Below, one piece after another: positions 9,252 to 56,079 of a stretch of DNA of 64,000 bases; positions within the stretch are counted from its first letter, which is position 1; the number at the start of each line of letters is the position of its first letter. The position numbers were made by a program, and so were the translations under genes. This DNA is from Patescibacteria group bacterium. Its GTDB lineage: Bacteria > Patescibacteriota > UBA1384 > GWA2-35-9 > JBASTP01. The notes below the pieces were generated by a model that saw only the letters and a list, made by a program, of their open reading frames with translations, was not told the origin of the DNA and did not search any database. The stretch is from the NCBI GenBank assembly GCA_049274945.1, contig JBASTP010000005.1:3178-67177 (forward strand), given 5' to 3'.

Positions 9252-10395
9252 TTAAATAGATAGCTAGATACGCGATCACCGTAAGCCACCACGGCCAGTG
9301 CTCGATGGTTGTTCCGCTGCCCGGCAGCTTCGCCAACCACCTAGTCACTGCCACAATATACCAAGCAATTGGATACAGCGGATAGGCGAGTGGCAGGAGG
9401 GTTGGCCCGGCAAGGCTGCCAAGGATTCCAATAGTAAGTGCGGCAATAGTGAGGATCGGCACAATCGGCAAAATTAAAAAATTGGCGATAGGGGACAGGG
9501 GAGTGAGTTGGCCAAAATGAAAAAGCAGTATCGGCAATACCGCCAGCTGTGCGCCGAGGGTCTCACTAAGAATTGCAACTGTTGCGGATGAACGGCCAAT
9601 GATTGGCAATCGTCCTATCGCCTGCTTTAATAATGGTGCAATATATACCAAACCAAGAAATGCCATAAACGAAAGTTGAAACCCGATATCGTGCAACAAA
9701 ATTGAGGGCTTATGGATCACCATTACCGTAGCAGCAAAAACCAACATGGGCAGCACACTCCCCTGCCGCCCGGTGAGTTGCGCCACAAGAAGGAGCCACG
9801 CCAAAATTGCCGCGCGCACCACCGAAGCCTGGCCGCCCACCAATGCCGCAAACGCAACAATCACAAAACTTCCCACCAAAAATCGGAGCCACGGCGAAAG
9901 TAACTTAAGCCAATCCACAAAAATCTTTAGGACAATCGTCACGTTGTAGCCGCTCACTGCCACAATATGGAGCGTTCCGGTGGCGATAAAGCTTTGTCGA
10001 AGCTCGTTTGAAATCAGTCCCTTACCTCCTAGCACAATCGAGGCAACCAAATTGCCATACGGCACCGGCAGGCTTGTGGCAAAAAATCGCACAAACTCGC
10101 TACGCGCGGTAGCCAGGAGCTCGAATATTTTGAGGTTAGGCAGCTGCCAGGCCGTGCCATCACCTACCAGATTGTGCCAAGCAATACCGGCAAACAACGC
10201 TAAACTCCCAAGGGCTAACCACATCACTACCCGCCGATCGTTGAAATGGAAGGCGAGCGCAACGAGACTAATGCCAATCCACTGGAGCGTAGTATTGCGC
10301 AGCGGCTCGGCTACCGGCACCACCTGCCCCAGCGCAACCCCTACCAGGAATATGAGTTCCATTGCCACAAGGTAGGTTGCACGGTGGACGATCAT
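9199..10395 (-). CDS. comEC: ComEC N-terminal part (polytopic competence/DUF4131 channel domain)
   Basis: 398-aa ORF, highly hydrophobic and multi-TM, with ComEC competence-domain architecture. Confidence 0.75.
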   Translation of the reverse strand: MIVHRATYLVAMELIFLVGVALGQVVPVAEPLRNTTLQWIGISLVALAFHFNDRRVVMWLALGSLALFAGIAWHNLVGDGTAWQLPNLKIFELLATARSEFVRFFATSLPVPYGNLVASIVLGGKGLISNELRQSFIATGTLHIVAVSGYNVTIVLKIFVDWLKLLSPWLRFLVGSFVIVAFAALVGGQASVVRAAILAWLLLVAQLTGRQGSVLPMLVFAATVMVIHKPSILLHDIGFQLSFMAFLGLVYIAPLLKQAIGRLPIIGRSSATVAILSETLGAQLAVLPILLFHFGQLTPLSPIANFLILPIVPILTIAALTIGILGSLAGPTLLPLAYPLYPIAWYIVAVTRWLAKLPGSGTTIEHWPWWLTVIAYLAIYLIVSHFWKRHVHPASHQT

Positions 10396-10412
10396 TGGTT
10401 AAAATTAACCCG

Positions 10413-10919
10413 ATGACCACCAAAAAACAACCTGCCCCGACTAGCGCGTCGGGGCCGGCCCCGACTGAGCTAGAAAACCTGCTTAAACGCCTGCAGGCGG
10501 ATTTTGATAACTACCGTAAGCGCATGGAACAGGAAAAGGTTCACACTATACAATCTGCGAACGCAAAATTACTATTGGATATTTTGCCAGTAGTTGATAA
10601 CTTCCGACGGGCAATTACCCACCGACCTGTCCCTCGAAGCCCCGGAGGCGAAGTGGAAAACTCTAGCGAAGGTGGGGGCCAGGACAATTGGTCGCAAGGA
10701 ATTCAGGCAATTGAACGGCAACTCGAAGATATCCTACAAAAGCATGGTCTCCAAGCGATCGAAGTTACTGTCGGCGACGAATTCAACCCCACCCTCCACG
10801 AAGCAATTGCCCACCAACCCTCGGGTGATCACCAACCCAACTCGATCATCAAAATTGTAGAAAACGGCTACCAGCTTAGCGGCAAAGTGTTGCGCCCCGC
10901 CAAAGTAGTAGTCAGCTAA
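10413..10919 (+). CDS. grpE: Nucleotide exchange factor GrpE
   Basis: ORF 10362-10919 trimmed to the ATG at 10413 (MTTKKQPAPTS...) so it does not overlap the comEC start. Carries the GrpE coiled-coil and C-terminal beta-domain (LQADFDNYRKRMEQE...VENGYQLSGKVLRPAKVVV). Confidence 0.85.
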   Translation: MTTKKQPAPTSASGPAPTELENLLKRLQADFDNYRKRMEQEKVHTIQSANAKLLLDILPVVDNFRRAITHRPVPRSPGGEVENSSEGGGQDNWSQGIQAIERQLEDILQKHGLQAIEVTVGDEFNPTLHEAIAHQPSGDHQPNSIIKIVENGYQLSGKVLRPAKVVVS

Positions 10920-12063: not shown

Positions 12064-13125
12064 TTATCTTTTTACCATTCTATGATACAAGCGTTCATAA
12101 CTGTCCACCATCACGGCTACAGAAAAACGGTCGGCGATACGGCGGCAATGAGTTCGATTGAGACCAGTCACATTCGGCACTGATGCGATCATTTCATCCA
12201 ATGTGTCAACCACAAAGCCGGAATTATTATGATCAACAAGCTCGCTCGCCGCACCCTTGCGGAAGGTAATAACCGGCGTTCCGGCAGCCATTGCCTCAAC
12301 CATCACGAGTCCGAACGCCTCGGGTAGATTAATCGGATGAATCATTGCCCGGTAGTGGCCAAGTTTCGCCACTTTGTCGGTATACTGCCAGTCGCCAAGA
12401 TATCGAATGGTTTTGTTATCGAGATGCGGCTTGATTGTTTCGTTGAAATAATCCTGCTCAAGGGGATGGATGTAGCCAGCAATATCCAATTTAATGTTGG
12501 CTGCTTTGGCCACCTCAATCGCGAGGTGAGGCCCCTTATCTTTGGCAATTCGGGAAAAAAACAGGTAGCGATCAGTCGGCGTATTGTTAAATATAAAATC
12601 ATTCACATAAATACCATTGTATACGACCCCCAGAAATGTGGCGGTAGCAGGTAAAAGATCGGCCATATACTGCGAGATGGCATTGAAGTATACCTTCGGA
12701 CCCAGTAGCGTTTGCCACGCTGGTATTTTTGATAGCTGCCGGGCAAAGTGAAAAGTGTGAAGATTTGGCGTTAGACAATCCCTTGCGCCAACCAAACCCA
12801 GCTCGCCAATATGACTATGGATAATATCAAATTGATCAGTTGAGCGGTATGCTTGCTTGATGAGCGCCAGTGTTTTAGCCTCGTCGTAGCGCTTGAGTGA
12901 TTTTGGAACAATTGATATCAGTCGTGCTTTAGTTTGACTGTCACCCGAGCTAAAGAGTGTGACATCGTGTCCCCGATCAACCAGCTCGTCAGCAAGCGCC
13001 CCGGTAATAAAACTTCTGCCCCACAGACCATGCCGGTCTACCGGATTCCACAAATCAGCTAGGAGCGCAATTCTCATAGCGGTATCATACGCTCTCCATT
13101 CCTTATAATCAATCCAAGTAGGCAC
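12064..13125 (-). CDS. Glycosyltransferase family 4 (GT-B fold)
   Basis: 353 aa. INLPEAFGLVMVEAMAAGTPVITFRKGAASELVDHNNSGFVV is a typical GT4 C-terminal motif. Confidence 0.8.
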   Translation of the reverse strand: MPTWIDYKEWRAYDTAMRIALLADLWNPVDRHGLWGRSFITGALADELVDRGHDVTLFSSGDSQTKARLISIVPKSLKRYDEAKTLALIKQAYRSTDQFDIIHSHIGELGLVGARDCLTPNLHTFHFARQLSKIPAWQTLLGPKVYFNAISQYMADLLPATATFLGVVYNGIYVNDFIFNNTPTDRYLFFSRIAKDKGPHLAIEVAKAANIKLDIAGYIHPLEQDYFNETIKPHLDNKTIRYLGDWQYTDKVAKLGHYRAMIHPINLPEAFGLVMVEAMAAGTPVITFRKGAASELVDHNNSGFVVDTLDEMIASVPNVTGLNRTHCRRIADRFSVAVMVDSYERLYHRMVKR

Positions 13126-13144: not shown

Positions 13145-13173
13145 TTGACAGTATGTAAAGTTTACTTTACACT
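13145..13173 (+). promoter_or_regulatory. dnaK promoter (TTGACA-17-TACACT) with an embedded palindrome TGTAAAGT-TT-ACTTTACA
   Basis: -35 at 13145-13150 and -10 at 13168-13173. A perfect 8-bp inverted repeat at 13153-13170 lies in the spacer. The ATG at 13180 falls at the expected TSS, so a leaderless mRNA is possible. Confidence 0.5.
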
Positions 13174-13179
13174 AACGCT

Positions 13180-15054
13180 ATGGGAAAAATTATTGGTATT
13201 GATTTAGGTACCACCAACTCGGTGGTTGCCGTGATGGAGGGAGGTAAGAGTAAGGTTATCGCCTCGGCCGAAGGCTCGGCGATCGTCCCCTCTATGGTGG
13301 CAATCAACAAAAATAGCGAGCGACTGGTTGGCCAGCTTGCTAAACGCCAGGCGGTAATGAATCCGGAAAACACGATCTACTCGGTCAAGCGGCTGATCGG
13401 CCGGCGTTTCGAAGACAAGCAGGTGCAGGAAGCGATGAAACACTTGCCCTACAAAATCGTGAAAGGCAAAGAAGACGCGCCCCACGTTCTGATGCAGGGC
13501 AAAGATTACTCACCCCAGGAAATCTCCGCATTTATTTTAACCAAACTTAAAAGCGATGCTGAATCGTTCCTTGGTGAAAAGGTAACCGAAGCGGTCATCA
13601 CCGTGCCGGCTTACTTCGACGATTCACAACGCCAAGCCACTAAAGATGCTGGCACGATTGCCGGGCTGGAAGTCAAACGTATTATCAACGAGCCGACTGC
13701 CTCGGCGCTCGCCTACGGCCTGGACAAAGAAAAATCCGGCCACATTTTGGTGTTCGATTTGGGCGGCGGCACGTTCGACGTAACGGTGCTCGACATCGGC
13801 GAAGGCACCTTTGAGGTCAAATCAACCCACGGCGATACCTACTTGGGCGGTGATGATTTCGACAAAAAAATCATTGATTGGATCGTCGAAGAGTTTAAAA
13901 AAGATGAAGGCATTGATCTTACCAAGGATTCAGCGGCAATCCAGCGCGTCAAAGAAGCCGCCGAAAAAGCCAAAATCGAACTTTCCACGGTGCAAGAAAC
14001 CGAAATCAATTTGCCCTTTATTACGGCCGATGCCGATGGGCCAAAGCACTTGGTGAAAAAACTCACCCGCGCCAAGCTTGAACAACTGGTGGAGGATTTG
14101 CTCGAGCGCACCAAAGAGCCGGTTACCCAGGCGCTCAAAGATGCCAAGCTCTCGGCCAGCGACATCAAGCACATTGTGCTGGTGGGTGGCATGACTCGCA
14201 TGCCCGCAGTCCAAGAAGTGGTCAAAAAAATCTTCGGCAAAGACCCTGACAAAAGCGTCAACCCCGATGAAGTGGTGGCCTTGGGGGCTGCGGTGCAAGG
14301 CGGCGTGTTAGGTGGCGAAGTGAAAGACATTCTGCTTTTGGACGTCACCCCGCTCACCCTCGGCATCGAAACGCTTGGTGGAGTAATGACGCCACTCATT
14401 GAACGCAACACCACTATTCCATCGAGCAAATCACAAATTTTCTCAACCGCCGCCGATAACCAAACTCAAGTGGAAATCCACGTGCTCCAGGGTGAACGAT
14501 CCTTGGCAGCGGATAGCAAAACGCTGGGGCGGTTTATTCTCGATGGCATTCCCCCGGCGCCCCGCGGCGTACCCCAAGTTGAGGTAAGTTTTGACATTGA
14601 CGCCAACGGCATTTTGAACGTTTCGGCTAAAGATAAGGCAACCAGCAAAGAACAAAAAATCACTATCACCGGCTCGAGCGGCCTAAACAAAGAAGAGATC
14701 GAACGAATGCAAAAAGACGCGCAAGCCCACGCCACCGAGGATGCTAAAAAGAAAGAATTGATCGAAGCCAAAAACTTGGCCGAGCAGCTCATGTACACCG
14801 CCGAAAAAGCGATGAAAGACGCCGGCGATAAAGCTAAACCCGACGACAAGCGCACCGTGGAAGATGCGGTGATGGCCCTAAAAGCGGTGAAGGACAAAGA
14901 CGACAAAACCGAGATCGAAGCGAAATCTAAAGCCCTCTCCGAAGTGCTCCAAAAAATGGGCGCGGATATGTACCAACAAAACGAACCGCCTAAAGAAGAA
15001 TCCAAATCCGACGAGAACGAGAGTAACGATAACAAAGACGACAAAAAGGGCTAA
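13180..15054 (+). CDS. dnaK: Molecular chaperone DnaK (Hsp70)
   Basis: 624-aa product with canonical Hsp70 motifs ([28 protein letters not shown]). Confidence 0.95.
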
Positions 15055-18104: not shown

Positions 18105-18296
18105 AGAGTATCACCTCTTCAGGAGAGATAACGCAAAAAATGCGCAAGTAAATACTAGCACAAGGTAACCGAAGAGTCAATGAACATCCCTTGACTTTTC
18201 AGAAAAAATCTGGCAAAATACACTCTATCTGGCTCAGGTGGCTTTTTTGTTTTTAGGGCCATTTGGGCTCGAAATCTTAACAACAGGAGTTGGTTC

Positions 18297-18884
18297 ATGA
18301 CCCATGCCGTTGCTGTACCTACCAGCCACAGGATCGACCAGAACGGAGGTGTGAACGGGATCGACCCCGGCGAGTTCGTTCTGGAGAGTGCCTTCCCACC
18401 CGAGATCTTCCGGTGGGAGCCCATCACCAAGGATGTGCTTTCGCGCGACCAGGTGGTTTCGCAAAGGGTTGCGGTCCATTGCGGATCGCTCGGCCAGAAC
18501 GTGATCAACCAGCTCGGCGTGGTTGTGGACTTGCTGAACGGTCACGAACACCCGGTCGGTCGGATCTACTGGTGCCCCATGGCACCGCTCGATCCGCTCG
18601 CGAGCTATCGGGCATGCTGCTTCGCCCACCACATGGCGTTGCTCAGCAAAGAAGCGCTGGGGCACTGCTATGGCGCGGGCCGCGGCATCGGAAGATCGAA
18701 CGGCAGCGCCGACGAGATGGACCTCATCCACGCGCGCTGGGTCGCGACGGCCATCGGCTACCTCAAGTACCGCGCGGTGATGGACCTCGAGGTCCCCAAC
18801 TTGCCAATCATCGCCAAACGGTACGCGGAGGGAGGGCTCGTGCTCGATCTTTCCAGCGCCGAGCGCCAGGCCCTGCATCAGTAA
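18297..18884 (+). CDS. Hypothetical Cys/His-rich protein, high-GC island (probable HGT)
   Basis: 195-aa ORF with an AGGAG RBS 9 nt upstream and a downstream terminator. GC is about 62% and GC3 about 85%, against a ~50% background. The overlapping antisense and out-of-frame ORFs have R/A/V-rich artefact composition. Confidence 0.5.
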   Translation: MTHAVAVPTSHRIDQNGGVNGIDPGEFVLESAFPPEIFRWEPITKDVLSRDQVVSQRVAVHCGSLGQNVINQLGVVVDLLNGHEHPVGRIYWCPMAPLDPLASYRACCFAHHMALLSKEALGHCYGAGRGIGRSNGSADEMDLIHARWVATAIGYLKYRAVMDLEVPNLPIIAKRYAEGGLVLDLSSAERQALHQ

Positions 18885-18912
18885 GAACACGCCCCATCAG
18901 AAATCCACACAC

Positions 18913-18950
18913 GGGAGCCCCGAGCAAAGTCGAGGGGCTCCCTCTTTTTT
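18913..18950 (+). terminator. Rho-independent terminator
   Basis: GGGAGCCCC...GGGGCTCCC 9-bp stem followed by TCTTTTTT. Confidence 0.7.
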
Positions 18951-19030
18951 ACCCAAAATCCATTGACCCGCCGCCAACTTTTTGGTATCGTTATAGGTTG
19001 CACATCACAACCGGAAAGGCAGGAAATGTC

Positions 19031-19570
19031 ATGCGATCACAGCCACACCCAATCGACAGTGTATTACTGCTCGGACTTCTCGTTGTTGTTAGCATATCCA
19101 CTTGGTCGGTTTCCAAACAGAATAACCCCGAGAACGCAACCCTTTCACACCTGCGCGAGGCAGGATCGATCAAGATCGTCGTCTACGATCCCCACCAGGA
19201 ATACCACCGAAACCCATCTGCCGAGTGCCCAGACCGGCATTTCAGAGGCTACATCCCCAGGATCAGGGGAATCAAAGCGGTGCTCACCGTTTCTCAGATA
19301 GCTTCTCGAGGTGACGAAACCGTAGTACGGGAACAAGCTAAAAAGTGGGCATGGCGCCAAGAGACTGAGTTGCGTAACGAACATCTGATCATTCAACCTA
19401 TCGCCATCAAACAACTCACCCCAGGGACCTATCGCGCCCGGCTCACGGTGGAAAAAAACGGCGAGAAAATTAGCCTTTCGGGCAAAACCCTCCTCACCAT
19501 CCCCGATCAAGACAAAACACCCGCTCCCTTAAAACCTCCCCGCCGCACGCCCGTGCGGCGGTTTTTATGA
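19031..19570 (+). CDS. Hypothetical membrane-anchored protein
   Basis: C-terminal part of track ORF 18290-19570, restarted at the ATG at 19031 with an AGGAAA RBS. N-terminal TM helix (VLLLGLLVVVSISTW). The upstream part of the long ORF is Arg-rich out-of-frame noise. Confidence 0.5.
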   Translation: MRSQPHPIDSVLLLGLLVVVSISTWSVSKQNNPENATLSHLREAGSIKIVVYDPHQEYHRNPSAECPDRHFRGYIPRIRGIKAVLTVSQIASRGDETVVREQAKKWAWRQETELRNEHLIIQPIAIKQLTPGTYRARLTVEKNGEKISLSGKTLLTIPDQDKTPAPLKPPRRTPVRRFL

Positions 19571-19656: not shown

Positions 19657-19685
19657 TTGACTTTGGTATATATTTGTGGTATAAT
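19657..19685 (+). promoter_or_regulatory. Consensus sigma70 promoter TTGACT-17-TATAAT upstream of the dnaJ-like gene
   Basis: TTGACT at 19657-19662 and TATAAT at 19680-19685 with a 17-nt spacer. Confidence 0.55.
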
Positions 19686-19741
19686 AAAAGGTTACGGTAC
19701 CGTTGTGTTAACAGGTAGCCATTGATCTCATCGGTGGAATA

Positions 19742-19761
19742 GTGTAAAGTATACTGTACAC
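19742..19761 (+). promoter_or_regulatory. Palindrome GTGTAAAGTA|TACTGTACAC in the dnaJ leader, same motif as in the dnaK promoter
   Basis: 20-bp inverted repeat with one mismatch, lying 28 nt upstream of the dnaJ-like ATG. Shares the half-site TGTAAAGT with the dnaK palindrome. Confidence 0.4.
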
Positions 19762-19788: not shown

Positions 19789-20391
19789 ATGGCAAGAGAT
19801 TATTACGATATTCTAGGTGCAAACCGCTCCGCGTCGGCGGACGAAATTAAGCGTGCCTACCGCAAGCTCGCCCACGAACACCACCCCGACAAAGGCGGCG
19901 ACCACGAAAAGTTTAAGGAAATCAACGAAGCCTACCAAGTGCTCGGTGATCCACAAAAGCGGGCCCAATACGACCAGTTCGGGGCGTCCTTCGACTCTCG
20001 CTCAGGACCTTCGGGAGCTCGGGGATTTGAGGGGTTTGATTTTGGCCAAGACGATGGGGGATTTTCGTTCTCATTCGGCGGCGGGCTGGGCGATATTTTT
20101 GGCGATGTGTTTAGCCAAGCATTCTCGCAAGTCCAATCAGAACTCCCGATCACCCTTACCCAGGCCATGCTGGGCGATCAATTTGACGTGCGCACCAATG
20201 CTCATGAAACGCTCACCATCAAAATCCCGCCCGGCACCCAAGACGGCACTACCTTGCGCTTTCGCGGCAAGGGCAACGCTCACCGGCGCGGCCGCGGCGA
20301 CCTCCTGCTGACCCTTCGCATCAAGCTGCCCACACGCCTCTCGCGCGAACAAAAACGGCTCTTTGAAGAACTTAAGCAATCAGGTTTGTAA
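19789..20391 (+). CDS. DnaJ-like co-chaperone (J-domain + G/F region + single C-terminal beta domain, no zinc finger)
   Basis: [35 protein letters not shown] carries the HPD motif. A Gly/Phe-rich segment follows; there are no CxxCxGxG repeats. 200 aa. Confidence 0.8.
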
Positions 20392-46519: not shown

Positions 46520-46595
46520 TGGTGGCTGCGGTAGGGATCGAACCTACGACCTAACGCTTATGAAGCGCTCGCTCTAACCACTGAGCTACGCAGCC
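46520..46595 (-). tRNA. tRNA-Met(CAU), elongator type (could be tRNA-Ile2 if lysidinylated), CCA encoded
   Basis: Complete 76-nt cloverleaf: GGCTGCG-TA-GCTC-AGTGGTTA-GAGC-G-AGCGC-TTCATAA-GCGTT-AGGTC-GTAGG-TTCGATC-CCTAC-CGCAGCC-A-CCA. Confidence 0.85.
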
Positions 46596-46692: not shown

Positions 46693-47323
46693 CATACCAC
46701 TGCGGCTTTCGCCGTCCCAAAAAAGGTTTGTGGTCTGGACTATACCTTATCCCGATACAACGTTGTCGGGATCCCGCCATCTAGTCTCTACACCTTACCC
46801 GATGTATATCGGGTCTTGGCTCGGTATTACCATATCTACAGAGATAAGGCTTCACCGAATTTGACGGGTATTGCCCCGCTCGTTACCGAGCGGGCGGCCC
46901 ACGATGACAACAAATCCCAACGTTCCCTGTAAGCAGCTGCGATCGGTTTTCGCTGCCTTTTTTCGACTTCTACGAGCGCGATTGTACTGCCATAACGTAC
47001 AAAAATTTCAACTGGAATCACGTAGAAGACAGGGCCTTGATCAATGTAGACGATTGCAAGGTCAAAATCTTCATTGTTGTAACGCTCTCTTCGCATCACC
47101 CGCCGGTTGGTTTTGGTCCTGCGCACATCTACGGCAAAGTAATTATTGGCAGGAACAAACCACGCGTGCTTGATCTGGATACGAATGAGCTTTCCGTTGA
47201 GGTCAACTGCTATGTCATAAGGTAATCGATCACCAACTGGTTTGAGTACCTTAAAGCCTCGACGAAGAAGTTCTGTTACAACAGCTGACTCCGCAATGTC
47301 TGCCTTGAGTTTTGTGTCCATTG
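46693..47323 (-). mobile_element. Group I intron carrying an internal homing-endonuclease-like ORF
   Basis: Core elements on the minus strand are GTAGAGACTAGATGG (R-like) and AAGGTATAGTCCAG (S-like), plus P9-like CGGC-GAAA-GCCG and a terminal G before CATAA. The ORF starts 2 nt after the 5' splice site and occupies the 5' part of the intron. Confidence 0.7.
46836..47321 (-). CDS. Intron-encoded PD-(D/E)XK-type putative homing endonuclease
   Basis: 161 aa, MDTKLKADIAESAVVTELLRRGFKV.... PYDIAVDLNGKLIRIQIK has D...D/E-x-K restriction-endonuclease-fold spacing. The track ORF 46836-47351 begins with an upstream GTG that is actually tRNA exon 1. Confidence 0.55.
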   Translation of the reverse strand: MDTKLKADIAESAVVTELLRRGFKVLKPVGDRLPYDIAVDLNGKLIRIQIKHAWFVPANNYFAVDVRRTKTNRRVMRRERYNNEDFDLAIVYIDQGPVFYVIPVEIFVRYGSTIALVEVEKRQRKPIAAAYRERWDLLSSWAARSVTSGAIPVKFGEALSL

Positions 47324-47457
47324 AGCCTGGCGAGCTACCGGACTGCTCCACCCCGCGATGTTATTAGTGTTCGCTGTCGCACAAAATAATCTGCGACAGT
47401 ATCCGTATTATACACATATTTACATTCTCGTGTAAAGATCGTAAGCTAAAGTTCGCA

Positions 47458-49275
47458 ATGGACCGACGCATCAAAAATATTCTCTATTTCATTATCGCGC
47501 TACTTGTGGTGTGGGCGCTGTTTGAATTTTCGGTCCCGCGACAGACCGGCGTCAAACGAACCACCATCTCAGAAATCTCCCAGGCAGTCGAAAAAGGCGA
47601 AGTTGAATCAGTCAAGGTTGAAGGCAACCGAGTAAAAGCAACCTTGCGTGACAACCAGGTACTCGAAACGTTTAAAGAACCGCAAGCAACCTTGAAAGAC
47701 TATGGCATTGTCCCCGAGAAAGTAACCATCGAGATTGCTAATCCCGAGCGAGGAACGCTCCTTCCCAACCTCCTGTCGTTCCTGTTGCCATTTGCGATCG
47801 TTGGAGTATTTCTCTACTTCATGATTCGGTCGGCACAGGGCACTAATATTAGAGCTCTCTCGTTTGGAAAATCTCAGGCGCGACTCTTTGAACCGGGTCA
47901 AAAACGGATTACCTTTGCCGACGTCGCCGGCGCCGAAGAACCCAAGCGTGAGCTGGTAGAGGTAGTTGAGTTCCTGCGCTACCCAGAAAAATTTCAGCGG
48001 CTGGGCGCCGAGATTCCTAAAGGAGTGCTCCTTATTGGCCCGGCTGGAACCGGTAAAACGTTGATGGCGCGAGCAGTCGCCGGTGAAGCAAATGTACCGT
48101 TCTTTTCGATCTCCGCCTCGGAGTTTGTGGAAATGTTTGTCGGGGTTGGCGCGGCTCGCGTACGTGACCTCTTTGCCAAAGCTAAACGCAATGCCCCGGC
48201 AATTCTGTTTGTTGACGAGCTTGATGCGGTTGGCCGCCAGCGCGGCGCGGGGCTCGGTGGATCGCATGACGAACGCGAACAAACCCTCAATCAAATCTTG
48301 GTCGAAATGGATGGCTTTGAAACAGAAACTCGCGTCGTGGTTATGGCGGCAACAAATCGTCCTGACATCCTCGACCCGGCCTTAGTGCGGCCGGGCCGTT
48401 TTGATCGTCGAGTGGTACTCGACCTGCCAGACAAGCGAGACCGCGAATCGATCCTCAAAATTCATGTGCGCGGCAAGCCGCTTGGCAAGGATATCGATCT
48501 TGAAAAGGTTGCCGGAGGTACTCCGGGATTTTCAGGCGCTGATCTTAAAAATGCGGTGAATGAGGCAGCAATTTTTGCGGCGCGCCACGACAAGAAAGAA
48601 ATCGCAATGAGCGATTTTAACGAAGCGGTGGAGAAAGTAATGCTTGGTCCGGAACGGCGTTCCCGGATCTTGAGCAAAAAAGAAAAAGAGATCATCGCCT
48701 ATCATGAAGCAGGGCACGCCATCGCCGCGCGATCATTGAAACACTGTGATCCGGTTCATAAAGTATCTGTCATTTCTCGGGGCATGGCGCTCGGCTTTAC
48801 CTGGACCCGACCTACAGAAGACCGGCACTTGATCAGCCGATCTAAATTCGAAGACGACCTCGCACAGCTCCTCGCAGGCAGAGTTGCCGAACGTCTCATC
48901 TTTAATGAGACTACCACTGGCGCGGCTAACGACCTCAAGCGGGCCACCAAAATCGCTCGCGATATGGTTACTCAGTATGGCATGTCAGATCGCCTGGGTC
49001 CGGTGACATTAAGTGAAGGCGATGAGCTTGTTTTCCTAGGTAAAGAACTGGGTGAACGCAAAACATATTCTGAAAAGATTGCCGAAACAATCGATGGAGA
49101 AATTTCAGCAATGGTTATTAAAGCCGAGACCCGGGCACGCGAAGTGCTCGAAAAACGAAAAGTAATCCTTCATAAATTAGCTGAACTGCTCATCAACGAA
49201 GAGACCGTGGAAGGTGATAGATTCGAACAATTTTTCCAGGGGGCGCCAAGCCCTAAGCGTGCTAAAAGGAAATGA
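47458..49275 (+). CDS. ftsH: ATP-dependent zinc metalloprotease FtsH
   Basis: 605 aa. N-terminal TM helices, AAA+ Walker A GPAGTGKT and SRH, and zinc motif HEAGHAI. Confidence 0.95.
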
Positions 49276-54785: not shown

Positions 54786-55130
54786 CTAGCCAATCGGCAT
54801 GTCGTCGGGCAGGTTTTCTTTGAGCGGTTCGTTGGTGGCGCCGGAAGGGCCAGGAGTGCCTTGCGGCGGCGCGCTTTGGGTAAACGGGGTGCCCGGGGTT
54901 TGCACCGAGATCGTGCGCGCCACCTCGTGGGGTGGCGGCGCGGCTTTCACCTCTTGTTGGATCAATTTTTGGAGCTCTCCCACCGAGAGCACGGCCACCG
55001 AGGGCTTGCCATTTTTGGTGAGAATGTAGAGCGGCGTGCCGGTTTCCAAATCAGCCACAATCTTTGAGAACCTGTCGCGCATTTCGGTTAAGGGAATAAT
55101 TTTGTCCACGGGAACTTGAAGCATAACCAC
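54786..55130 (-). CDS. Phd/YefM-like antitoxin-fold protein with Pro-rich C-terminal extension (no adjacent toxin)
   Basis: The N-terminal ~70 aa (LYILTKNGKPSVAVLSVGELQKL) fits the YefM/Phd fold. The C-terminal 40 aa are P/T/G-rich. Confidence 0.4.
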   Translation of the reverse strand: MVMLQVPVDKIIPLTEMRDRFSKIVADLETGTPLYILTKNGKPSVAVLSVGELQKLIQQEVKAAPPPHEVARTISVQTPGTPFTQSAPPQGTPGPSGATNEPLKENLPDDMPIG

Positions 55131-55177
55131 CTCCTCTACCCCATTATTACCGCCTTAATTCTGGCTGTCAACTCTAT

Positions 55178-55216
55178 CGTATTATATACTATAGTATATA
55201 AGTATTATATAATACT
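55178..55216. other. AT-rich palindromic/direct-repeat site next to the xer gene (candidate dif-like recombination site)
   Basis: GTATTATATA-CTATAGTATATAA-GTATTATATA: a direct repeat flanking an 18-bp perfect palindrome TATATACTATAGTATATA, immediately 3' of the tyrosine recombinase stop. Confidence 0.3.
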
Positions 55217-56079
55217 CAAGTTTTCCGGCGTTTGCCGTGGAAGGCCTTGTGCACCTCTTTGAGCTGAACGTTGGTAACGTGGGTGTAGATTTGGGTGGTA
55301 GTAACTGAGGCATGGCCGAGCAAACTTTGCACTGATCGGAGGTCGCTGCCATTCTGGAGTAAATCTGTTGCATAGCTGTGACGGATCGTGTGGGGATGCA
55401 CCTTTTTCACAATTCCAGCTTTGCGGGCGTGGCTGTCTACCACGCGCTGAATTTGGCGAACGGTGATTGTGAAGACGCGCGGATTATCGTCGCCGCGGGT
55501 TTTAAGATACCGATCAAGCCACTGTTTTGCGGCGTCAGACAGAAACACCACGCGCACCTTGCCGCCCTTGCCGCGCACCGCAAACTCGCCGGAATCGAGA
55601 TTGATTTCGGTTTGCTTCAAGTTTGCCAATTCCGAAACCCGCAACCCGGTTGAAAAAAGTACTTCAAGAATCGCTTTGTCGCGGCTGCCGGTAGGCTTGC
55701 GCAGATCCGGCGCGGCAAGCAGCCGCTCGAGCTCGTTCTCGTCAAGGAAGGTTACTTGCCGTTCGGGCGTATCCGCCAGCTCAATTTTCTCCGCAGCCAG
55801 GGTTTGAATGTCGCGTTTAGTTAAATATTTCAAAAACGAGCGCAACGCAATCAGGTGGTAATTCTGGGTTGAACGAGACATTCTCTCCAGACGATTGAGT
55901 TCAAGGCGCCACTGGCGCACGAGTTCTAAATCAATTTTTTCCGCCCCGTCCACACCGGCTTTTTCGGCGAATTCTAAAAAACGGGAAAGGTAGTGATCAT
56001 AGTTGCGAATCGTCAGGTGCGAGTGCCCCCGCTCAATTTCGCAGTACTCCAAAAATTCACGGATCAATTTAGCGAGCAT
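55216..56079 (-). CDS. Tyrosine recombinase XerC/XerD family
   Basis: 287 aa. The C-terminal HPHTIRHSYATDLLQNGSDLRSVQSLLGHASVTTTQIYTHV carries the catalytic R-H-R-Y residues. N-terminal SAM-like core-binding domain. Confidence 0.85.
   Translation of the reverse strand: MLAKLIREFLEYCEIERGHSHLTIRNYDHYLSRFLEFAEKAGVDGAEKIDLELVRQWRLELNRLERMSRSTQNYHLIALRSFLKYLTKRDIQTLAAEKIELADTPERQVTFLDENELERLLAAPDLRKPTGSRDKAILEVLFSTGLRVSELANLKQTEINLDSGEFAVRGKGGKVRVVFLSDAAKQWLDRYLKTRGDDNPRVFTITVRQIQRVVDSHARKAGIVKKVHPHTIRHSYATDLLQNGSDLRSVQSLLGHASVTTTQIYTHVTNVQLKEVHKAFHGKRRKT

Follow-up and report, generated by a model that had tools for sequence, protein, structure and literature searches.

A conserved palindrome at the dnaK and dnaJ-like promoters of a Patescibacteria bacterium as candidate operator of a small heat-shock protein fusion repressor

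Introduction

A stretch of 64,000 nucleotides from a Patescibacteria group bacterium (contig JBASTP010000005.1 of assembly GCA_049274945.1, positions 3,178 to 67,177; the whole stretch is referred to here as the window) carries an 18-bp palindrome inside the promoter of the chaperone gene dnaK and a near-copy upstream of a dnaJ-like gene, and raises the question of which regulator acts at these sites. Bacterial heat-shock control is classically exerted by sigma-32, HrcA, HspR, CtsR and RheA. Members of the Candidate Phyla Radiation (CPR) are hard to grow and encode few transcription factors, and to our knowledge next to nothing has been learned of how their transcription is regulated. An initial annotation of the window suggested a distinct regulator for a subset of genes made up of dnaK, the dnaJ-like gene and ftsH. 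Our findings suggest that the palindrome, TGTAAAGT-WW-ACTTTACA, is probably the operator of an autoregulated repressor of chaperone genes, in which a helix-turn-helix (HTH) domain of the CylR2 type is joined to a small heat-shock protein (sHSP) and which would be released when the sHSP part is engaged.

Two operator sites at chaperone promoters

The first site, O(dnaK), is a strand-neutral operator at 13154 to 13171 and consists of two 8-nt arms in perfect inverted repeat around a 2-nt centre (TGTAAAGT-TT-ACTTTACA; TGTCCCGT designates a mutated form of the half-site TGTAAAGT). The repeat had been recognised in the initial annotation, which placed it one base too early, at 13153-13170. It occupies a sigma-70-type promoter, TTGACA-17-TACACT, on the forward strand (10 of 12 positions matching), in which a promoter scan located the -35 hexamer TTGACA at 13145 to 13150 and the -10 hexamer TACACT at 13168 to 13173. 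The operator begins 3 bp past the -35 box, and its last four bases are the first four of the -10 box, the DNA upstream of the gene reading cTTGACA-gta-TGTAAAGTTTACTTTACA-CT-aacgct up to the ATG at 13180. The dnaK gene (13180 to 15054, forward strand) encodes a 624-amino acid protein (Pfam HSP70, 1.5e-264) that is 100% identical to NCBI entry MFY9484325.1, labelled 'Patescibacteria group bacterium', and the closest DnaK relatives carry the label Candidatus Berkelbacteria.

The second site, O(dnaJ-like), is likewise strand-neutral and lies at 19743 to 19760. Its sequence, TGTAAAGT-AT-ACTGTACA (= TGTAAAGTATACTGTACA), shows one mismatch to the dnaK site, located in the right half. This 18-mer forms the core of the 20-bp palindrome GTGTAAAGTATACTGTACAC, which is found at 19742 to 19761 exactly as first annotated, and 28 nt separate its end from the ATG at 19789. 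The gene that follows (19789 to 20391, forward strand) encodes a 200-amino acid protein with a J domain and a DnaJ C-terminal domain (Pfam DnaJ, 4.4e-25; DnaJ_C, 5.2e-14) and without the zinc-finger region. An upstream promoter, P1 (TTGACT-17-TATAAT, 19657 to 19685, forward strand, 11 of 12 positions matching), places the operator about 50 nt inside the P1 transcript. A weaker element read from the sequence, TTGATC-17-TAAAGT at 19722 to 19750 on the forward strand, falls under the threshold of the promoter scan and may be a second promoter, P2, whose -10 box lies within the left half of the operator; TTGATC and the 17-nt spacing are kept in the related locus L081 (described below). P1 itself (TTGACT-17-TATAAT followed by AAAGGTTA) is near-identical in the window (19657-19700) and in L081 (4527-4560), including its spacer GGTATATATTTGTG, and the leader 3' of P1 is not conserved between the two.

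Within the window, matches with three mismatches or fewer were limited to these two sites, against 0.18 expected, and one of 100 shuffled sequences yielded two or more such matches. A weight matrix made from 24 heat-shock sites attributed 32.4 bits to the dnaK site and 28.6 bits to the dnaJ-like site, the next-best position in the window reaching 3.8 bits. The half-site GTGTAAAG reported before ftsH does occupy 47430-47437, with 20 nt between it and the ftsH ATG, but a role as operator is rejected because of its chance-level counts, the weight matrix and the geometry of the half-sites. This 8-mer is seen three times on both strands of the window against about 1.9 expected, and two of the three occurrences are inside real sites. 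At ftsH no second half-site follows it and no weight-matrix score is obtained, and the local inverted repeat, ATATTTACA-N6-TGTAAAGAT, has its half-sites in reverse order and 14 instead of 10 bp apart, and seems to reflect the -35-like TTTACA box.

Conservation of the operator in relatives

Contigs carrying the closest DnaK homologs were fetched (L081-L087), and the orthologous promoters bore out the palindrome of the window. The 18-mer upstream of dnaK is identical to that of the window in L081, L082 and L083 (DnaK identities of 91, 89 and 84%), only the central TT is replaced by AA in L086 and L087 (75%), and a single half-site mismatch is found in L085 (81%); the contig of L084 (83%) is too short upstream to judge. 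The bases around it have changed: the 3-bp spacer between the -35 box and the operator is gta in the window, tag in L081, cga in L082, cat in L083 and aaa in L086, and the downstream flanks also differ between the window and its relatives. In the window, the -10 box and the ATG of dnaK are separated by 6 nt with no Shine-Dalgarno sequence, and because the same gap is found in L081 and L083, the dnaK mRNA is presumably leaderless in these three; L082 and L086 have a leader about 55-60 nt long that contains a Shine-Dalgarno sequence. By these comparisons the dnaK 18-mer stands out as a phylogenetic footprint, in DNA that precedes the predicted transcription start.

In L085 (730-1184), the site heads a two-gene operon ending in dnaK, whose first gene, directly before dnaK, encodes a 123-amino acid 23S_rRNA_IVP (four-helix-bundle) protein. 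The 23S_rRNA_IVP gene would therefore be co-regulated with dnaK.

Orthologous dnaJ-like genes carry the site as well, with scores of 23.2 bits in L081, 29.3 in L082 and 22.4 in L086, in other registers relative to their promoters. By comparison, 18 of 20 aligned promoters of dnaK, grpE, groES and HTH-Hsp20 genes share the register cTTGACA-N3-operator. Over about 220 kb of Berkelbacteria-type loci, all the sites scoring at least 10 bits are situated at dnaK, a dnaJ-like gene, grpE, groES or the fusion gene described below. Membership of the regulon varies between genomes: some relatives have groES and grpE in it, and the window does not. The conservation of the palindrome supports its reading as a cis-regulatory site at the chaperone promoters of Berkelbacteria-type bacteria. 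Of the interpretation first given, the distinct operator is upheld; a subset of dnaK, dnaJ and ftsH that leaves out groES is not supported, the ftsH half-site being at chance level and the operator occurring, in the same register behind TTGACA, at groES(L) and grpE promoters of related Berkelbacteria.

Comparison with other heat-shock operators

Comparison loci carrying dnaK (L001-L079; DnaK identity of 60-69%, from other CPR classes and other phyla) served as controls for the frequency of CIRCE and of HTH proteins, and the palindrome was not found upstream of dnaK in any of them. A search for CIRCE (TTAGCACTC-N9-GAGTGCTAA, up to four mismatches) returned no site in the window, in L081-L087 or in three loci of the fusion gene (L208-L210), whereas the same scan identified CIRCE in 39 other dnaK loci, usually as a perfect copy about 2 kb upstream of dnaK. 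Because CIRCE is absent here and present in those other dnaK loci, the palindrome seems to hold the place of CIRCE in this lineage. In many other Patescibacteria an hsp20 gene stands directly before dnaK, a feature absent from the lineage of the window.

The HAIR element (CTTGAGT-N7-ACTCAAG, up to two mismatches) was not detected in the loci scanned. Five matches to the CtsR box (RGTCAAA-NAN-RGTCAAA) were found with three mismatches, against 6.1 expected, none of them at a chaperone promoter. The gene hrcA usually heads a grpE-dnaK operon; in the window grpE is preceded by a divergent comEC, and Pfam scans of about 68 open reading frames (ORFs) of the window, together with a hidden Markov model (HMM) of the family, revealed no HrcA, MerR/HspR, CtsR, XRE or Hsp20 domain. 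The initial annotation, which held that the motif matches neither CIRCE, HAIR nor the CtsR repeat and that hrcA, hspR and ctsR are missing from the window, was correct on both counts. The sequence comparisons support an operator distinct from these three, which would imply a different regulator. Three other candidates present in the window, YebC, a ROK protein and a Phd/YefM antitoxin, were set aside, having no link to the sites.

The motif and CylR2-like regulators

A scan of metagenome contigs for the exact pattern TGTAAAGTWWACTTTACA yielded at least 120 loci (L088-L207) ranging from 19 to 68% G+C. Among the listed loci, three groups can be distinguished based on the genes behind the motif: (i) XRE proteins of 64-75 amino acids encoded directly downstream or one small membrane-protein gene away; (ii) chaperone genes behind the cTTGACA-N3-operator architecture of the window dnaK, namely dnaK (L145, L158, L186, L192), grpE-dnaK-dnaJ-like (L108) and groES-groEL (L122, L172, L176); and (iii) proteins of 167-260 amino acids that begin with an XRE HTH and whose genes also follow the cTTGACA-N3-operator architecture (L123, L127, L143). 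In the second group, the groES(L) site of L172 lacks a -35 box, and the DnaK of L145 and L192 is 84% identical to a named Berkelbacteria DnaK.

A family HMM detected a CylR2-like HTH ORF in 51 of the 120 listed motif loci, with 50 of 52 such ORFs located within 600 nt of the motif. Among the control loci (951 kb), 2 of 87 contained one. The exact motif is, by this association, a predicted operator type of CylR2-like XRE regulators. Many of the listed loci carry, on the -35 box beside the perfect site, a second, degenerate operator (TGTCAAG-N4-CTTTACA or TGTAAAG-N4-CTTGACA). Many are also arranged in the order operator, small membrane protein, small XRE protein, as in cylR1-cylR2, and this arrangement looks like a widespread, uncharacterised two-gene module.

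CylR2 of Enterococcus faecalis is described in a review as the repressor bound at the PLys promoter of cytolysin (PMC3709268). On an E. faecalis plasmid (L214), the promoter region ahead of cylR1-cylR2 contains TTTTGTCAAGTG-T-CACTTGACAAAA; written as half-sites it becomes TGTCAAGT-GTC-ACTTGACA, in which TGTCAAGT is one base off TGTAAAGT and the spacing is 3 bp instead of 2. This plasmid palindrome is presumably the mapped CylR2 site. The sites of the window are of the CylR2 type in that they are palindromes with TGT(A/C)AAGT half-sites placed at the core promoter.

An HTH-Hsp20 fusion with the operator in its own promoter

The proteins of the third group combine Pfam HTH_3 (3e-12) and HSP20 (1e-23) in one polypeptide, the HTH being N-terminal. 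Such fusions would supply the co-conserved regulator gene that the initial annotation proposed to look for: a CylR2-like HTH-Hsp20 gene accompanied by the operator is present in relatives, and none is in the window. At least 120 relatives of the fusion were listed, mostly full-length (231-294 amino acids), one being a 147-amino acid Hsp20-only protein. Those listed under a lineage name belong to Candidatus Berkelbacteria or the Patescibacteria group, another being labelled just 'bacterium ADurb.Bin400', and NCBI annotates most of the fusions as 'Hsp20 family protein'. An exhaustive search of cluster representatives gave about 45 clusters of full-length fusions at 50% identity.

In an alignment of 58 fusion sequences, many positions of each half are invariant. 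The recognition-helix residues R35 and Q36 are so in the fusions and also in the small XRE proteins located beside the same motif. The other half contains the conserved features PWRPF…LRDAMDRLFE, a segment typical of the N-terminal regions of bacterial sHSPs, AELPG, and a C-terminal I/V-x-I/V. Among PDB entries the HTH is closest to a 65-amino acid regulator of the PbsX family (9k3w, 5e-16) and to CylR2 (1utx, 1e-11), the first 64 residues of the fusion aligning with both from end to end, and the alpha-crystallin half matches wheat Hsp16.9 (3e-18).

Five fusion genes were fetched by protein identity, independently of the motif (three labelled Berkelbacteria and two Patescibacteria), and the operator is present in the promoter of all five (L208, L209, L210, L212 and L213). 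The promoters of L208, L209 and L210 read TTGACA-aaa-TGTAAAGTTTGCTTTACA; L213 has a perfect site in a leaderless promoter (TTGACA-taa-), and L212 a perfect site with another spacing. At each of these loci, which span 15-21 kb, the promoter site is the sole match with three mismatches or fewer. Three more fusion genes with the operator were found through the motif (L123, L127 and L143). No description of HTH-sHSP fusion regulators or of heat-shock regulation in Patescibacteria was found in the literature; the fusion and its chaperone regulon appear undescribed, and the operator itself appears to belong to the CylR2-type class.

Proposed mechanism

We infer that a fusion of this kind is present in the genome of the window, binds the palindrome, acts as a repressor and senses stress, and its mode of action may be outlined as follows. 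A protein of about 240 amino acids, encoded elsewhere in the genome, would consist of an N-terminal CylR2-like HTH, a variable linker and a complete sHSP. Its dimer would bind the palindrome, whose half-site centres have the 10-bp separation expected for a CylR2-like dimer. At dnaK the dimer would cover the spacer and the -10 box and repress by blocking RNA polymerase, a block that is proposed because the operator begins 3 bp after the -35 box and enters the -10 box. At the dnaJ-like gene, the operator would cover the weaker internal promoter and form part of the RNA made from P1. The regulator would also repress its own gene by way of the same operator.

Under heat or other proteotoxic stress, the sHSP part would bind unfolding proteins or shift its oligomeric state, and the HTH dimer would leave the DNA. 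The dnaK, dnaJ-like and regulator genes, and in relatives also grpE and groESL, would then be derepressed. Once DnaK, DnaJ and GrpE had cleared the clients, repression would be restored, completing a homeostatic loop.

The closest known parallel in DNA binding is CylR2, the repressor of E. faecalis cytolysin, which shares the HTH family and a nearly identical operator, the palindrome in both cases being placed at the core promoter and the unit being autoregulated. It differs in being a stand-alone HTH protein of 66 amino acids, whose signal is thought to come through the separate membrane protein CylR1, whereas in the proposed system the HTH is fused to an sHSP, the chaperone targets are controlled in trans and the spacing is 2 instead of 3 bp.

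Like HrcA/CIRCE, the proposed system would repress dnaK and groESL operons from a palindrome located in the promoter, through a regulator coupled to chaperone availability, HrcA activity being coupled to GroEL titration; the operator sequence and the protein family are different. HspR/HAIR, CtsR and RheA are likewise dedicated heat-shock repressors that act on repeats overlapping chaperone or protease promoters, HspR being coupled to DnaK, and CtsR and RheA being intrinsic thermosensors. All three differ from the proposed system in their DNA motifs and in their protein families (MerR for HspR, winged HTH for CtsR). An sHSP as stress sensor has a parallel in Escherichia coli IbpA, described in PMC10410725 as suppressing its own expression and that of sigma-32, with relief when IbpA is sequestered by aggregates. 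IbpA acts post-transcriptionally and without a DNA-binding domain, whereas the proposed fusion carries an HTH, and its site of action would be the promoter.

Weighing the repressor model against alternatives

Several observations weigh against an HTH-sHSP repressor in this genome. No regulator gene was detected in the 64-kb window or on the short contigs L081-L087 (family HMM and XRE/Hsp20 searches), and no fusion could be assigned to this metagenome-assembled genome (MAG) by comparing accessions (DnaK MFY9484325.1 with MCX, MFA and MCL accessions of fusions), by the names of the 50%-cluster representatives or by a homolog search with the divergent fusion P0241. Most of the listed motif loci pair with stand-alone small XRE proteins and not with fusions. 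In the window, the weight matrix found no site at the promoters of groES (as the initial annotation had reported), grpE or ftsH, and in the syntenic 'Berkelbacteria' locus L211 (DnaK identity of 70%) grpE-dnaK-dnaJ-like is devoid of the operator; the regulon is therefore not universal in the class. Finally, the AlphaFold model of the fusion is confident for the HTH only (predicted local distance difference test, pLDDT, of 78-88 over residues 11-70), the alpha-crystallin half showing a low-confidence beta-sandwich pattern with pLDDT of about 50.

The alternative that best survives is that the operator is bound here by a stand-alone small CylR2-like XRE protein, perhaps together with a CylR1-like membrane protein, in response to another signal, and that the fusion plays no part. 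It agrees with the 64-75-amino acid XRE proteins of most listed motif loci, often found by a small membrane protein as in cylR1-cylR2, and because no fusion gene has been tied to the MAG it stays a live alternative in this genome. It is nonetheless unlikely, since the CPR-type heat-shock promoters all share the cTTGACA-N3-operator register with the promoters of the fusion genes, all five independently fetched fusion genes possess the operator, the lineage-named fusions are of Berkelbacteria or Patescibacteria, and no small XRE gene is located near any heat-shock site.

It is less probable still that the fusion binds the operator as something other than a heat-released repressor, for example as an activator or a constitutive brake, with the Hsp20 part working as a chaperone or an oligomerisation module. 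The direction of regulation and the signal are both proposed, and sHSP domains oligomerise, which alone could be enough to explain the fusion. Against this stands the position of the operator between a consensus -35 box and the -10 box and overlapping the latter, which is that of a repressor site and not of an activator site. Its targets are also exactly the classical heat-shock genes, and the CIRCE/HrcA control of other Patescibacteria is missing here.

An origin of the palindromes as a side effect of promoter sequence or by chance, with no dedicated regulator, is very improbable. TTTACA does look like a -35 box and TACAnT like a -10 box, ACTTTACA contains TTTACA, the end of the operator forms the -10 box of dnaK, and the 'site' at ftsH is exactly of this kind. 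Such an origin would nevertheless hardly account for an 18-mer conserved in full while the neighbouring promoter bases drift, for the different registers at dnaJ-like promoters, for the strong association with one HTH family, or for two sites in the window where 0.18 are expected.

Action of the palindrome in RNA, as a hairpin, a thermometer or a processing site in a 5' leader, is barely credible: the dnaJ-like site would be transcribed from P1 and dnaK does have a leader in L082 and L086, but in the leaderless promoters the predicted transcription start comes after the dnaK site, the dnaJ-like leader is no more stably folded than its shuffles (z = -0.58), and Rfam recognised no RNA family at either site, its matches in the window being a tRNA and a group I intron located elsewhere.

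Other features of the window

The window carries a gene set of the small-genome type, including ruvA, ruvC, yebC, comEC, grpE, groES-groEL, ftsH, murJ, efp, ssb, ndk and dnaE. The grpE gene, identified by the Pfam scan and missing from the initial annotation, lies at 10413-10919, and two glycosyltransferase genes are divergent to dnaK. Besides dnaK, further genes look wholly or almost leaderless, with a -10 box followed after 6-10 nt by a start codon and with no Shine-Dalgarno sequence (regions 13084-13112 on the reverse strand, and 10377-10415, 13145-13182 and 47420-47460 on the forward strand). Among them are grpE (TTGCAC-17-TAAAAT, 7 nt, ATG at 10413), the divergent glycosyltransferase gene (TATGAT, 6 nt, ATG at 13079, reverse strand) and ftsH (TTTACA-17-TAAGCT, 10 nt, ATG). 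The groES gene has an ordinary leader with AAGGAAGGA.

About 1.5 kb between a GH42-like gene and the dnaJ-like promoter (18105-19570) is devoid of Pfam-matching ORFs. The longest ORF of this region, on the forward strand, comprises 426 amino acids, and its Arg/Pro-rich N-terminal half looks non-coding; a strong terminator-like hairpin is present at 19540-19561.

Just upstream of the ftsH promoter, a group I intron (46716-47004, reverse strand; Rfam score of 53 bits, gathering score of 50) adjoins tRNA-Met(CAT) (46520-46595) and overlaps the 3' part of an ORF for a PD-(D/E)XK_5 endonuclease (46836-47351, reverse strand; Pfam, 6e-40). At 54786-56079 (reverse strand), a tyrosine recombinase of 287 amino acids (Phage_integrase and SAM-like N-terminal domains) is encoded beside the Phd/YefM-type antitoxin (114 amino acids), and may be XerC/D or part of a small mobile element.

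Significance

More tentatively, Berkelbacteria, and perhaps more of the Patescibacteria, may have swapped HrcA/CIRCE for a single-polypeptide HTH-sHSP stress sensor whose sHSP domain, once it takes up clients, would directly free the operator and so induce dnaK, dnaJ, grpE, groESL and the regulator's own gene; such a sensor would represent a new class of bacterial heat-shock transcription factor. Chaperone titration normally involves two proteins, as in HrcA-GroEL, HspR-DnaK, sigma-32-DnaK and HSF1-Hsp70. If the proposal is true, titration would here be hard-wired into one polypeptide, and could be tested with one protein, operator DNA and a denatured client. The results also provide a testable regulon for one CPR class, in which the 18-bp operator, the target promoters and a candidate regulator are all specified, and would assign a DNA motif to the small XRE regulators of the CylR2-like type, a large family that is for the most part uncharacterised.

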